Assembly (NCBI GenBank): GCA_029865605.1
Contig: JAOUGE010000005.1
Location: 338-64,337, forward strand
Origin: Candidatus Berkelbacteria bacterium
GTDB taxonomy: Bacteria; Patescibacteriota; UBA1384; DTJR01
Reading direction: 5' to 3'
DNA: 64,000 nucleotides
Part shown: positions 6,467-34,782 of the stretch, in pieces
How positions within the stretch are numbered: position 1 is the stretch's first letter
How the letters are laid out: the number at the start of each line of letters is the position of its first letter
Made by a program: the position numbers and the translations under genes
Notes under the pieces: generated by a model
Told to the model about the DNA's origin: nothing
The model's database searches: none
Seen by the model: the letters and a program-made list of their open reading frames with translations, nothing else

Positions 6467-6609
6467 TGGTAGCGGGGGTGGGATTTGGTCACAAGTCGGC
6501 GCGCATATTTTTCTTAAAGAGTGTGCCGCTCGCGACCCCGCCTCATCCCGCCGTGGCGGGACTCCGGCCTTCAAATCCCATCGCTCCCAATTCTCGGCTT
6601 ACGCCGATC
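6467..6609 (-). repeat. conserved structured element after a tRNA 3' end, copy 1 (appended to tRNA-Met)
   Basis: Minus-strand order is antisense T-loop segment GGGATTTGAAGGCCGG, hairpin CCCGCC-ACG-GCGGG, GAGGCGGGGTCGCGA, second hairpin, TTGTGACC, then a 21-nt copy of the tRNA T-loop-to-CCA end (CAAATCCCACCCCCGCTACCA). Confidence 0.8.
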
Positions 6610-6686
6610 TGGTAGCGGGGGTGGGATTTGAACCCACGACCTCGAGGTTATGAGCCTCGCGAGCTACCAGACTGCTCCACCCCGCG
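6610..6686 (-). tRNA. tRNA-Met (anticodon CAT; not initiator-like, A29 in the anticodon stem)
   Basis: Reverse complement folds as a cloverleaf: CGCGGGG acceptor, D-arm GAGCAGTCTGGTAGCTC, anticodon loop CTCATAA, T-arm GTGGGTTCAAATCCCAC, encoded CCA. Confidence 0.8.
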
Positions 6687-6812
6687 TTCTAGATGCTAGT
6701 ATAGCTTAATACTTAGTAACTTAAAAGTCAATCTCATAATCCTTTTATTTTAATTTGTGGCAAAGCCTTCATTCTGGTAATCTGGAATAAATTTGAGGTT
6801 AAAAGCCGATTA

Positions 6813-7412
6813 ATGTTTTTTATCCGCAATATTCAAAAAATAAGAAAATTCAGGCTAAATTCTAGGCTTAGTTTACTGCTTGGGTTCTTTTTGCTAGTAG
6901 TTTTAGCGAGCATCTTTTTTACCAAGGGCAAAACAGCTCCGGGCAGCTCTATGGCTTCTCCTACCCCAAGCGCTGAAGAATCAGTCCTCGACAAAAATTT
7001 TGCCCTAGAGGTTGAAAAGCTCTCAATCTCGGTACCAATAATTAAGGATGTCGACGGAAGCGATAAAGATAAGTACAACGAGGCTCTCAAAAAAGGATTG
7101 GCTCACTATAAAGGCACTGCCTTACCGGGCGAAAAAGGCAATATTTTCATTTTCGGTCACTCAAGCTCGGATGAGGTCGGGGATTACGGCAAGGTTTTTT
7201 CCCACCTTGATGATCTGGAAAAGGGCGACCTTATCAGGGTTTATTACAAGCTTGAACAGCACGATTATGAGGTTTTTGAAGAGAAGGTTGTTGAAGCAAC
7301 CGATTTGTACGTCCTTGACAGAGGAAATAAAGAAAAGCTGACTCTTATGACCTGTTGGCCGGTGGGAACGAAAGACAAAAGACTTGTCGTCATCGGCTAC
7401 CCTAAGAAATAA
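6813..7412 (+). CDS. sortase family transpeptidase
   Basis: N-terminal transmembrane helix, a conserved His (IFIFGHSS) and catalytic TLXTC motif (LTLMTCWPVG). Confidence 0.7.
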   Translation: MFFIRNIQKIRKFRLNSRLSLLLGFFLLVVLASIFFTKGKTAPGSSMASPTPSAEESVLDKNFALEVEKLSISVPIIKDVDGSDKDKYNEALKKGLAHYKGTALPGEKGNIFIFGHSSSDEVGDYGKVFSHLDDLEKGDLIRVYYKLEQHDYEVFEEKVVEATDLYVLDRGNKEKLTLMTCWPVGTKDKRLVVIGYPKK

Positions 7413-7464
7413 TTGGCTCATAGGATTGAAAAGATTTAAAAAAAGTGTAGAATATTTAGATGCT

Positions 7465-7541
7465 GGCAACGTAGCTCAGTTGGTTAGAGCGAGGGAATCA
7501 TAACCCCTAGGTCACAGGTTCGAATCCTGTCGTTGCCACCA
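7465..7541 (+). tRNA. tRNA with anticodon CAT (Met or Ile2/lysidine)
   Basis: GGCAACG acceptor paired with CGTTGCC, D-arm GCTCAGTTGGTTAGAGC, anticodon loop ATCATAA, T-arm ACAGGTTCGAATCCTGT, encoded ACCA. Confidence 0.8.
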
Positions 7542-7659
7542 GGTTGTTTTTTGGTGAAACGGCGGATTCGAAGGCCGCAGCGAGCGAAGGCGAGCGAGGC
7601 GGGGTCGATTGCCGCGCCAGCAGGTGCGGACAAGTGACCGAATCCTGTCGTTGCCACCA
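7542..7659 (+). repeat. conserved structured element after a tRNA 3' end, copy 2
   Basis: Starts GGTTGTTTTTTGGTGAAACGGCGGATTCGAAGGCCG. Contains GAGGCGGGGTCG, hairpin CCGCGCC-AGCA-GGTGCGG and AAGTGACC. Ends with a 25-nt repeat CGAATCCTGTCGTTGCCACCAGGTT of the tRNA 3' end. Confidence 0.8.
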
Positions 7660-7727
7660 GGTTTTAAGTTAGGCCATGCCACCCCTTGCTTCGCAAGCCT
7701 ACTAGTTTTACGTTTTAAATTTTAAAT

Positions 7728-33031: not shown

Positions 33032-33060
33032 GCCAGCAGGCCGAGCGGACCTGAACTCAA

Positions 33061-33090
33061 GGGGGCCCTCACGGGCCCCCTTCGACGTTT
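33061..33090 (+). terminator. intrinsic terminator after the PHP-protein gene
   Basis: GGGGGCCC-TCAC-GGGCCCCC followed by TTCGACGTTT. Confidence 0.5.
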
Positions 33091-33144
33091 GCGCCAAGGC
33101 GCTATTTTTGCTAGAATAAGACCTCAATCAAATTAAAAAAAGCG

Positions 33145-33624
33145 ATGCAAATTCAAAAGAACAAAGATGGGAATCTCGAGATAAAGTCTAAAAAAGCCAC
33201 CGTTGTGTTTGATGGAAAGGTTGTCGTAAATGATGTTGAGCTTGAAGGTGCGGGCGAATATGAAGTTGGAGAGATTGCAATCGAAGGGATTGACGACGAC
33301 ATTTATATTTTTCAAATCGAGGATGTTGTCTTGGGTTCGGTCAATTTCAAATCTAAGATTACTAAGGAAAATGTCGAAAGATTGGCCAACTGCGACGCGG
33401 TTTTAGTGCGGCTTGACGGCAAAGTTCATGAGGCGGTAGAGCAGGCCGGGCAAATTCAGCCGGACACCATAATTTATGCCGGGACTTCTCGATCGGCAAC
33501 AGAGCTTAAATCAAGCGGGGTTTCTTTTACAAAATCGGATTCGATTAAACTAAGCAAGGCGGATATTGGACAGGAAAAATCGTATTTCCTCGAACTAGCA
33601 GATGGTAATGGTCAAAACCTTTGA
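33145..33624 (+). CDS. hypothetical acidic protein
   Basis: 159 aa. Overlaps the nrnA-like gene downstream. No recognisable motif. Confidence 0.35.
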   Translation: MQIQKNKDGNLEIKSKKATVVFDGKVVVNDVELEGAGEYEVGEIAIEGIDDDIYIFQIEDVVLGSVNFKSKITKENVERLANCDAVLVRLDGKVHEAVEQAGQIQPDTIIYAGTSRSATELKSSGVSFTKSDSIKLSKADIGQEKSYFLELADGNGQNL

Positions 33625-34570
33625 GAAGATCCTAGCTGTTTTCGAAAAATCTGAGAGGGTTTTGATTCTGCTGCACCTTTATCCAGACGGAGATACTGTG
33701 GCGTCGTCCTTGGCTCTGGCGACTTTTCTGAAAAGGAGAGGCATACTTGCTGATTGCGCAGTTAGAGGGGAAATACCCAAGCCCTTTCATTTCTTGCCCG
33801 GCGTTGATTCTATCAGGCATGATTTTCTACTCGGCGATTATGATGTAGTCGTCGCTGTTGATTGTGGTGATGCCCAGCGCACCGGTTTTCCGGTCCGTCT
33901 TGAGCAGATTTGCAAATCAAGAACATTTATTAATATTGATCATCACAACAAAAATAACTTGCATAGAATTGCTAAGATAAATCTGGTTGACAAGGGGGCT
34001 TCTGCGGCAGCAGAAATTATCTGGGACTTTTTAAAATTTGCCGGAGCGGAAATTGACAGCAAGATGGCGACATATATTTTGTCGGGGATATATTTTGACA
34101 CGGGCGGATTTCAACACTCGAACGTTACGACAAGAACTCTTGAAGTGGCATCGGATTGCTTGCGCCTTGGGGCAAGAATTTCAGCGATAACGGCGAATAT
34201 AAATGGAACGAAAACTTCATCAGCATTGAAGCTTTGGGGAATGGCACTGAAGAGGATGAGAATAAGCAGAAGTGGTATAGCAAGTTCTATTTTAACCCAG
34301 GAGGACTTAAAGGTTTGCCGGGCGAAAGCTGAAGATGCTTCAGGAGTTGTTAATTTGATAAGCTCGGTGCCTCAAGCCAAGCTGGCAATCTTGTTCTTAG
34401 AGAATCCTGATGGTAAAATTAAAGCCAGCTTGCGGACTGATTCGGTCAAGGTTGATGTGGCTCAATTCGCTCGTCTTTTCGGCGGCGGAGGGCACAAAAA
34501 AGCAGCTGGGTTTACAATAGAAGGGAAGCTGGTTGAAAAAACCGGAAAGTGGGGGATAGCGGAGGGGTGA
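33602..34570 (+). CDS. DHH/DHHA1 phosphoesterase (NrnA-like oligoribonuclease/pAp phosphatase)
   Basis: Motifs HLYPDGDTVASS, DCGD, DHHNKN, and a C-terminal GGGH (DHHA1). Confidence 0.7.
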   Translation: MVMVKTFEKILAVFEKSERVLILLHLYPDGDTVASSLALATFLKRRGILADCAVRGEIPKPFHFLPGVDSIRHDFLLGDYDVVVAVDCGDAQRTGFPVRLEQICKSRTFINIDHHNKNNLHRIAKINLVDKGASAAAEIIWDFLKFAGAEIDSKMATYILSGIYFDTGGFQHSNVTTRTLEVASDCLRLGARISAITANINGTKTSSALKLWGMALKRMRISRSGIASSILTQEDLKVCRAKAEDASGVVNLISSVPQAKLAILFLENPDGKIKASLRTDSVKVDVAQFARLFGGGGHKKAAGFTIEGKLVEKTGKWGIAEG

Positions 34571-34577
34571 AGAATCT

Positions 34578-34663
34578 GGGCGAGTGGTGGAATGGTATAC
34601 ACGTTGGACTTAAAATCCAATGGTCGCAAGACCATGTGGGTTCGAATCCCACCTCGCCCACCA
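34578..34663 (+). tRNA. tRNA-Leu (TAA), type II
   Basis: GGGCGAG paired with CTCGCCC, anticodon stem-loop TTGGA-CTTAAAA-TCCAA, variable arm, T-arm TGGGTTCGAATCCCA, ACCA. Confidence 0.85.
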
Positions 34664-34782
34664 GGTTGTTTTTTGGTGAACAGGGGGGATTCGAAAGCCG
34701 GACCAGCCCAGGGCTGGGAGACGGGGTCGCACAAAAATTCAGCAGAATTTTATGAGTGACCGAATCCCACCTCGCCCACCAG
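34664..34782 (+). repeat. conserved structured element after a tRNA 3' end, copy 7
   Basis: Starts GGTTGTTTTTTGGTGAA, as copy 2 does. Then GGGGGATTCGAAAGCCGG (antisense T-loop), CAGCC-CAG-GGCTG, GAGACGGGGTCGC, AAAAATTC-AGCA-GAATTTT, GAGTGACC, and a 30-nt repeat CGAATCCCACCTCGCCCACCAGGTTGTTTT. Confidence 0.85.

Follow-up and report, generated by a model that had tools for sequence, protein, structure and literature searches.

A 64,000-nucleotide stretch of the genome of a Candidatus Berkelbacteria bacterium (assembly GCA_029865605.1, contig JAOUGE010000005.1, positions 338 to 64,337; hereafter the window) carries, behind six of its tRNA genes, seven copies of a short element with no open reading frame (ORF). 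The element is a 5' hairpin with an 8-11-nt antisense arm (X'), followed by a 64-nt core and, at tRNA sites, by its own copy of the tRNA 3' end. It is real, widespread and of a previously undescribed kind. Its arm is complementary to the intact target across the junction, and its core has a conserved structure, supported by covariation, on the tRNA-sense strand. Orthologous tRNAs differ in whether they carry the element; copies decay and form tandem duplicates, and one lies within a protein-coding gene. It is quite likely a mobile insertion element, and we lean towards reading the copies as a family of non-autonomous miniature insertion elements of the Patescibacteria (candidate phyla radiation, CPR).

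Results

Anatomy of the copies in the window

Nine tRNA genes were found in the window by ARAGORN, concordantly with Rfam, and not the ten counted in the original prediction, which had been made from the letters of the sequence. The element lies directly 3' of six of the nine, the Phe gene being followed by two copies in tandem; the Cys, Leu-CAG and Val tRNAs have no element. The predicted seven copies behind six tRNA genes are borne out by the layout read downstream of each tRNA and by a script that located the repeats. The tRNA gene ends in the first repeat copy, X1; a leader hairpin ending in the arm X', the core and a second repeat copy, X2, then follow. Exact direct repeats of the tRNA 3' part, from C56 of the T-loop, are present in six of the seven copies, with a length of 21 nt at Met1, Gly, Leu-GAG and Phe, 25 nt at Met2 and 30 nt at Leu-TAA, and X1 is separated from X2 by 118-155 nt. 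The repeats had been described as perfect throughout; in the seventh copy, Phe-2, the repeat is degenerate, with two substitutions and an inserted 20-nt GC palindrome.

Directly 5' of the core, every one of the seven copies has 8-10 nt that form the reverse complement of its host's T-loop, as had been predicted, and each of the five distinct T-loop sequences in the window is matched by the arm of its own copy. The leader hairpin often continues into an antisense copy of the CCA end, so that the arm is an imperfect inverted copy of the whole repeat. The core segments that had been called near-invariant are so in the case of GTGACC (7/7), but GAGGCGGGGTCG is exact in four copies only, with one-base or few-base variants in Leu-GAG, Phe-2 and Leu-TAA. 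Similarly, the CAGCAG loop of helix P2 is found in six copies, whereas Met1 has a longer P2 without it. In the Phe-2 core, ACGCGC replaces GGCCGG, and GAGCGGGGGTCG is a further mutated segment. The pattern GGGGTCG-N10-40-GTGACC has seven matches in the window against 0.01 expected, six of which are elements and one (at 32891) spurious. A covariance model, the check that the original prediction had proposed, recovered the seven copies, which score 45-78 bits, and gave no other significant match in the window; every strong match there adjoins a tRNA.

Met1 is a tRNA-Met(CAT) gene on the minus strand (6610-6686), whose last 21 nt (6610-6630) are X1. On the same strand, its leader hairpin and arm span 6570-6609, the arm GGGATTTGAA (6570-6579) complementing the T-loop TTCAAATCCC; the core (6487-6570; 44.9 bits) is the long-P2 variant lacking the CAGCAG loop and ends in GTGACC, and X2 (6467-6487) is an exact 21-nt copy of tRNA positions C56-A76. 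The remaining copies are on the plus strand. At the second tRNA-Met(CAT), Met2 (7465-7541; X1 at 7521-7545), the leader GGTTGTTTTTTGGTG and the arm GGATTCGAA (7564-7572) occupy 7542-7572, the core 7572-7639 (62.9 bits with the covariance model, as for the scores of the other cores) and the 25-nt X2, which extends 4 nt beyond CCA, 7639-7663. The tRNA-Leu(TAA) gene (34578-34663; X1 at 34643-34672) is followed by the same leader GGTTGTTTTTTGGTG with the arm GGGATTCGAA (34686-34695) at 34664-34695, by a core at 34695-34761 (60.2 bits) and by a 30-nt X2 at 34761-34790 that extends 9 nt beyond CCA into a copy of the leader.

At tRNA-Gly(GCC) (23826-23900; X1 at 23880-23900), the leader and the arm GAATTGAA (23945-23952) span 23901-23952 and include a terminator-like hairpin between ACGA and TCGT, as well as TGGAGC, the antisense of GCTCCA; the core lies at 23952-24019 (73.4 bits) and the 21-nt X2 at 24019-24039, followed by a terminator-like hairpin at 24043-24063. 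The tRNA-Leu(GAG) gene (28283-28368; X1 at 28348-28368) has a promoter-like site at 28244-28272. Its leader hairpin and the arm GGACTCGAA (28411-28419) fill 28369-28419, its core (28419-28503; 49.9 bits for 28442-28503) has an extra insert in the P1 region and a P2 identical to that of Phe-2, and its 21-nt X2 (28503-28523) precedes a terminator-like hairpin at 28525-28550. Behind tRNA-Phe(GAA) (29031-29106; X1 at 29086-29106), the Phe-1 leader and the arm AGAATCGAA (29149-29157) occupy 29107-29157, with a GCGAAGC mini hairpin and with CTGGTGC, the antisense of GCACCAG; the canonical 64-nt core (29157-29220; 77.9 bits) and a 21-nt X2 (29220-29240) follow. Phe-2, the older tandem copy, has its leader hairpin and arm at 29241-29338, the antisense arm being nearly full-length, split by a hairpin and ending in AGAATCGAA at 29330-29338. 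Its core, in which conserved bases are mutated, lies at 29338-29403 (55.7 bits) and its degenerate repeat at 29403-29443.

The GC-rich palindrome inserted in this repeat (29409-29428) is CCTGCCTGCCGGCAGGCAGG, and a similar one, CCTGCCGGAGGCAGG, lies at 48266-48280; the palindrome pattern has three matches in the window (two overlapping at the Phe site) against 0.13 expected, and the palindrome may be another tiny palindromic insert. Two contigs of the same strain (L165 and L167 from Logan SRR7132115; L-numbers are labels of the compared loci and contigs) end at or beside copies of the element, near Met1 and inside Phe-2. Given these contig ends in one read-run assembly, the repeats of the element may break assemblies.

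Structure of the core

The seven window copies, aligned with about 100 copies from other genomes, define a core of 64 nt with the consensus AAGCCGGAGCGCGACGGCGCGAGGCGGGGTCGCGGAAATTTTCAGCAGAAAATTATCCGTGACC and with RGCCGG and GTGACC at its ends. Helix P0 has 3 bp (GCC/GGC) and is followed by an internal loop, GGA/GA. Helix P1 has 4-6 bp and a GNNG loop, and a GG linker separates it from P2, a long helix with the base GGUCG/UGACC, an invariant bulged A and the loop C-AGCA-G. When 79 distinct cores were fitted to the covariance model, standard pairs occupied 96.6% of cells, and changes on both sides were found in 16 of the 22 pairs. The covariation score was 0.612, compared with 0.155 in shuffles and 0.05-0.13 in slid-register controls. 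Furthermore, one pair, five pairs from the 3' boundary, is G.U in 79/79 cores, and a second is G.U in 31; on account of these G.U pairs the structure is assigned to the tRNA-sense strand, in the form of RNA or single-stranded DNA. When the flanks are added, folding predicts a three-way junction, with the arm X' and the downstream repeat X2 paired to close it, and the predicted-fold z-scores are -3.5 to -5.9 in six of the seven window copies.

In the 70 nt before cores, the motif GCGAAGC, which as DNA forms a mini hairpin known for its high stability, is about nine-fold enriched, on one strand only (for example at 29116-29122 of the window); this strand-specific enrichment is a weak hint of DNA structure. 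Other modules recur around the core. The loop GAATACTTGGA is found in the hairpin preceding the core at four loci, and optional extra hairpins, either GAAAGYGTAMTCRC or GAT plus GCGTGCCTG..CAGGACAC, lie between GTGACC and the repeat (L004, L011, L024, L030, L094, L101, L112; L042, L070, L088, L103).

Arm and junction rules across genomes

Across genomes, the copies fall into two main site classes. In the T-loop class (48 copies), the arm complements the tRNA from T54 to about nt 62, and the repeat starts at C56/R57 and is usually 18-31 nt long. In the acceptor-end class (17 copies), found at tRNA genes without an encoded CCA, the arm (e.g. TTTGTGCG) is complementary to the trailer together with the final acceptor bases, the junction is at 72|73 and the repeat is merely 0-7 nt. 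The earlier claim that the repeat begins in the T-loop thus describes the window copies but not the family, which has the acceptor end as a second entry point in other genomes. In both classes a C precedes the junction (C56|R57 or C72|A73), which lies 2-3 nt into the target of the arm, and the repeat starts exactly 2 nt inside the target in all 36 measurable cases of the T-loop class. Of the 48 T-loop copies, 42 have an arm with perfect complementarity over 8 nt or more; over all copies 68% reach 8 nt, compared with 10.5% of trials with non-cognate arm/tRNA pairings. A recurrent arm variant has GAG for TCG, which places a tandem G.A opposite G57-A58.

Over all copies the repeats span 0 to 66 nt, and 48 of 67 copies have identical X1 and X2 over nt 57-73, the exceptions being truncations and not point-mutated copies. 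This identity is compatible with frequent excision and re-integration or gene conversion, and also with selection on an RNA. A simple staggered-cut target duplication is disfavoured, since the Met2 and Leu-TAA repeats enter a leader common to elements and since X1 and X2 differ at some loci in whether they encode CCA.

Distribution and database searches

An exact 24-base pattern from the core, scanned over one genome per species, is carried by at least 119 loci, nearly all of them in metagenome-assembled genomes of Patescibacteria. The listed hosts include Saccharibacteria, Paceibacterota/Parcubacteria, Kaiserbacteria, Berkelbacteria, WWE3 and others, and two of the listed pattern matches are due to chance and were rejected by the covariance model. 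In 1.14 Mb of fetched related DNA we found 144 cores, with 35 anticodons represented. Adjacency to tRNA genes, complete in the window, is predominant outside it: 100 of the 144 cores lie within 150 nt downstream of a same-strand tRNA, but the others do not.

The original prediction had recognised no described family in the arrangement, and our searches agree. Only tRNAs reached the Rfam 15 gathering score over the whole window. In 28200-29500, a segment with three of the copies, a search at E<=10 gave tRNAs and noise but nothing relevant, neither a ribozyme, riboswitch, intron (RF00028 included), omega-RNA/HEARO nor T-box match. Viral contigs, a phage collection and a plasmid collection had no match to the core, and a phage or plasmid origin was rejected on this basis. 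A full-text search of the literature found no description of the element, which is not covered in a paper on Patescibacteria tRNA introns or in the TIGR-Tas paper. Readings of the core as a hammerhead, a hepatitis delta virus ribozyme, a K-turn or a bulge-helix-bulge were discarded by eye, as the consensus features are missing.

A CCA-adding-enzyme gene lies near the core in 12 loci. This apparent link is explained by conserved synteny with tRNA-Arg-TCG: the order CCA-adding-enzyme gene / tRNA-Arg-TCG / tRNA-Gly-GCC is kept in many CPR lineages (L034, L053, L056, L068, L070, L073, L080, L085, L091, L106, L116, L119). In those loci, which were picked for carrying the element, tRNA-Arg-TCG is the most frequent host, with both T-loop and acceptor-end versions.

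Evidence for and against mobility

The original prediction had proposed an empty-site comparison, and one such pair was found. In the window, tRNA-Leu(CAG) (27173-27258, plus strand) is empty and is directly followed by its own flank. In L121, the closest relative found (84% amino-acid identity in a neighbouring gene), 118 nt, bounded by a 21-nt repeat, are inserted between an identical tRNA-Leu-CAG and the homologous flank. This copy is the only element that the covariance model detected in 44 syntenic loci totalling 250 kb. Occupancy also varies in L124, where the element follows Val (with a 66-nt repeat) but not Phe, and Leu-GAG has a truncated stump, arm plus GGCCGC. Exact-protein look-ups for strain-level polymorphism returned the same strain only.

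Other copies show decay and displacement. In the tandem Phe pair the decayed copy is the one farther from the tRNA, as expected if new copies enter the intact tRNA. Orphan arm-core-repeat units exist behind a different tRNA or none, and some copies lie between a duplicated tRNA 5' fragment and an intact gene. In the latter arrangement, a mirror of the usual layout, a tRNA 5' fragment of 25-46 nt is duplicated and followed by a hairpin and core and then by the intact tRNA (L059 7570-7840; L092 4465-4740; L114 2585-2860; L015 1985-2260; L025). In L002 (3443-3506) a full-score 64-nt core is in frame inside uvrC, in the linker between two cysteine pairs; the protein has 443 aa, compared with 409-420 aa in most close homologues, and is about 25 residues longer, and the DNA alignment places the hairpin and core where the linker would be. 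Finally, modules are shared between copies at different tRNAs: the Met2 P2 is nearly identical to the P2 of the L121 Leu-CAG copy, that of Leu-GAG is identical to that of Phe-2, and one leader is common to three copies. Consequently, retargeting between tRNAs appears to have occurred within this genus.

In the long versions of the element (L017 and L046), X1 lies 2.5-2.9 kb from X'-core-X2, and one of them carries a large serine recombinase (Resolvase, Recombinase and Zn ribbon). We rejected the long versions as an autonomous form of the element and read them as nested insertions because their cargo is heterogeneous and apparently bounded by its own tRNA-end repeats. The recombinase has more than 7800 homologues (E <= 1e-30) across CPR, the best 120 of which are 69-87% identical. 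In seven of the loci examined (L046 3181-4650, minus strand; L120 from 1659 onward; L121 from 5564 onward; L098 6298-7704, minus strand; L170, L172 and L173) its 3' end abuts tRNA 3' ends (Arg, Leu, Gly, Tyr), and where the sequence was read the gene lies between inverted repeats of about 105 bp that take in the last tRNA bases. In L046 the recombinase is nested with the element. The core is absent from four further recombinase loci, and the recombinase was therefore dismissed as mobiliser and treated as a separate element; it looks like a second, very successful tRNA-targeting element.

Several observations weigh against a mobile element. The search for a mobilising recombinase or TnpA that had been suggested with the original prediction did not yield one. 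IS200/IS605 TnpA was not found by tblastn, using two TnpA queries, in the 1.14 Mb of DNA flanking the 144 copies. The serine recombinase is not generally linked to the element, being absent from 117 of the 119 listed element loci, and no protein family recurs beside cores except syntenic housekeeping genes. The P1 and P2 sequences of the seven window copies are very different, too diverse for a recent burst from one master copy. A clean empty/filled pair was found just once, and exact removal of a copy through recombination of its repeats would give the same picture. The persistence of X2 = X1 apart from truncations also fits selection or gene conversion on a functional RNA, and the promoter-like site before the tRNA and the terminator-like hairpin after X2, at Gly and Leu-GAG, bracket tRNA and element and make co-transcription plausible. 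The invariant G.U pair and the compact junction are typical of functional RNAs. Lastly, the matching of arm and X1 to a new tRNA is not accounted for.

Discussion

Of the two alternatives that the original prediction had offered, a mobile element or a trailer RNA, we favour the former. If the element is mobile, the arm may tentatively be regarded as a guide acting on a single-stranded target. In this reading a single strand of the element, present as single-stranded DNA at the replication fork or possibly as a transcript, would fold, and its arm would pair with a single-stranded target and so select the tRNA site. A trans-acting enzyme recognising the core would then exchange strands at two C|R bonds. 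The tRNA 5' part would be joined to the 3' end borne by the element, giving X1, and GTGACC to the displaced native 3' end, giving X2. The tRNA would be kept functional and the locus would be open to re-entry, yielding tandem arrays. A bolder and more doubtful proposal is that the 64-nt core and the arm of about 10 nt form a minimal programmable targeting module, in which the strand-transfer point, 2-3 nt from the junction, is set by arm pairing, and the chemistry is provided by an undescribed trans-acting CPR recombinase or by the nucleic acid itself.

A functional trailer RNA is the main rival, while a ribozyme-like mechanism and integrase scars are minor ones. The element would, as a trailer, be a cis-acting RNA that is co-transcribed with the tRNA, forms the three-way junction closed by X'/X2 and spreads through its usefulness; its roles would lie in tRNA 3' processing, in quality control, or as a decoy or sensor of tRNA 3' ends. 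The strong covariation, with G.U pairs on the tRNA-sense strand including an invariant one, the fold z-scores of six of the seven copies and the layout of promoter, tRNA, element, X2 and terminator at Gly and Leu-GAG all speak for it. So do the identity of X2 with X1 even when X2 is unpaired with the arm, the recurrence behind tRNA-Arg-TCG in the conserved neighbourhood of the CCA-adding-enzyme gene, Arg and Gly, and a clear terminator-like hairpin in just 16 of 100 leaders by a crude scan. However, the element is patchy, missing from three of the nine window tRNAs and from 43 of the 44 syntenic relatives, and truncated, mutated and orphan copies exist, as does the in-frame uvrC copy, where a tRNA trailer role makes no sense. 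Acceptor-end copies have little or no X2 and a different topology, and if the arm paired with the T-loop, it would compete with folding of the tRNA. Altogether we consider a trailer RNA unlikely. A related idea, that the core is a small catalytic RNA moving at the RNA level, with the arm as internal guide, cleavage and ligation at C|R and genomic copies arising secondarily, draws on the same compact junction, its invariant bases and the invariant G.U five pairs from the 3' boundary. The internal guide sequence of group I introns complements the ligated junction, and the arm likewise complements the intact junction. Against this stand the lack of an Rfam ribozyme or intron match even at E<=10 in 28200-29500 and the size of the core: 64 nt is far below the length known for any self-splicing intron. 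Moreover, the tRNA is complete with X1, which would make splicing unnecessary; in the acceptor-end class, cutting at 72|73 would leave the tRNA destroyed; and fixation in DNA would need reverse transcription, while a study of 95 complete Patescibacteria genomes found no group II introns (PMC13011429), which also weighs against it. We regard movement at the RNA level as very improbable.

We give equally little credence to the copies being scars of integrative islands, in which attL and attR were fused after loss of the cargo, as in cis-mobilisable elements (CIMEs), with the core as the attP arm region for a tyrosine or serine integrase. The repeats do begin in the T-loop or the acceptor end, as at classical integrase sublocations, which Williams is said to have placed there in tRNA genes in 2002, and long versions with 2.5-2.9 kb exist, one with a large serine recombinase (L017, L046). 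But one core is common to 35 anticodons, its antisense arm fits each T-loop variant, and covarying hairpins with G.U pairs would be unexpected of duplex protein-binding arms. The cargo of the long versions is heterogeneous and, we infer, bounded by its own extreme tRNA 3'-end repeats, the core is missing from four further recombinase loci, and neither viral contigs nor the phage and plasmid collections contain it. The view in the original prediction that a conventional integrase-borne island is unlikely is thus upheld.

Returning to a mobile element, its logic would be most like that of the IS200/IS605 guide-plus-hairpin or of folded single-strand sites such as attC, although it fails the defining features of IS200/IS605, attC, miniature inverted-repeat transposable elements (MITEs), integrase islands, introns and known guide RNAs. 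The palindrome-associated transposable elements (PATEs) of the IS200/IS605 family have no ORF and about 100-200 bp, and are moved by the Y1 HUH enzyme TnpA through one active folded strand. A short guide 5' of the hairpin foot pairs with the cleavage site, insertion occurs 3' of a short target and excision is precise. The present element is also small and ORF-less, with a guide-like arm immediately 5' of the hairpin foot. In contrast to the 4-nt guide of PATEs, its arm is 8-11 nt or longer and spans the junction; its P0-P1 and P2 differ in length, loop and bulges, whereas PATE hairpins are similar; its 3' end lies in the stem base, and it carries a copy of the sequence downstream of its target. 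The junction always follows a C (TTC| or GC|), compared with the PATE rule of a fixed short target without target duplication, and with the two queries no TnpA was found near the 144 copies.

Integron attC and CTX-phage attP sites are strand-specific hairpins with conserved and extrahelical bases and a variable stem that mimics a duplex target. The element resembles them in its strand-specific folded hairpin, its conserved and bulged base and its variable stem, but has no R/L boxes (GTTRRRY) or R''/R' boxes (RYYYAAC...GTTRRRY), ends in RGCCGG and GTGACC and targets tRNA genes, not attI or dif; its neighbours are tRNAs and housekeeping genes and not cassettes. With tRNA islands and CIMEs of tyrosine integrases it shares a repeat of the tRNA 3' part from the T-loop or acceptor end, an own copy that restores the gene and a native terminator behind the displaced copy. 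Those islands have att arms specific for one tRNA, whereas an element of about 120 nt without integrase has one core at 35 anticodons, a covarying single-strand structure and a customised arm. Rickettsia palindromic elements are likewise short, structured, ORF-less repeats with no known transposase that are tolerated in frame in genes and in RNA genes, but the present element adds tRNA targeting with fixed geometry, a matched arm, a target repeat and a phylum-wide core.

Among guide-RNA systems, the bridge RNA of IS110 and the omega-RNA of TnpB also have a conserved scaffold between target-matching segments; as with omega-RNA guides, the sequence adjoining the element recurs as the 3' flank of the scaffold, and as with the group I internal guide the arm complements an uninterrupted site. 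Unlike these systems, the element has no adjacent recombinase or nuclease gene at its cores, a scaffold of 64 nt and no Rfam match, and the intact upstream tRNA would itself be a perfect target. Classical DDE MITEs differ in that the element ends in X' and GTGACC, without terminal inverted repeats or a fixed short target duplication, and group I introns in having a P3-P9 core of at least about 200 nt against 64 nt, whereas the tRNA upstream of the element is complete.

If insertion is directed by the arm, no smaller guide-bearing mobile element would be known, and the element would point to an undescribed recombination activity in the poorly understood CPR. The module of core and arm would, if real, constitute either guide-directed DNA insertion of a new class or a small ribozyme of a new kind, one that retargets via few arm bases and protects the host gene with a replacement 3' end. 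More conservatively, the element can be read as a selfish repeat, spread across the phylum, by which tRNA loci in highly reduced genomes are remodelled. It generates pseudo-tRNA fragments, can sit inside proteins, and creates palindromic sites where other mobile elements have apparently inserted (L046). It also provides a 64-nt marker for CPR DNA, with a strongly covarying structure that is absent from Rfam.

Other features of the window

The GC content is 0.53-0.56 at 24001-26000 and 30001-34000, compared with 0.41-0.50 in most of the remaining window. Two large ORFs are without a Pfam match, one at 21112-22578 and one at 31163-33031, the latter according to precomputed annotation of the same gene in L166.

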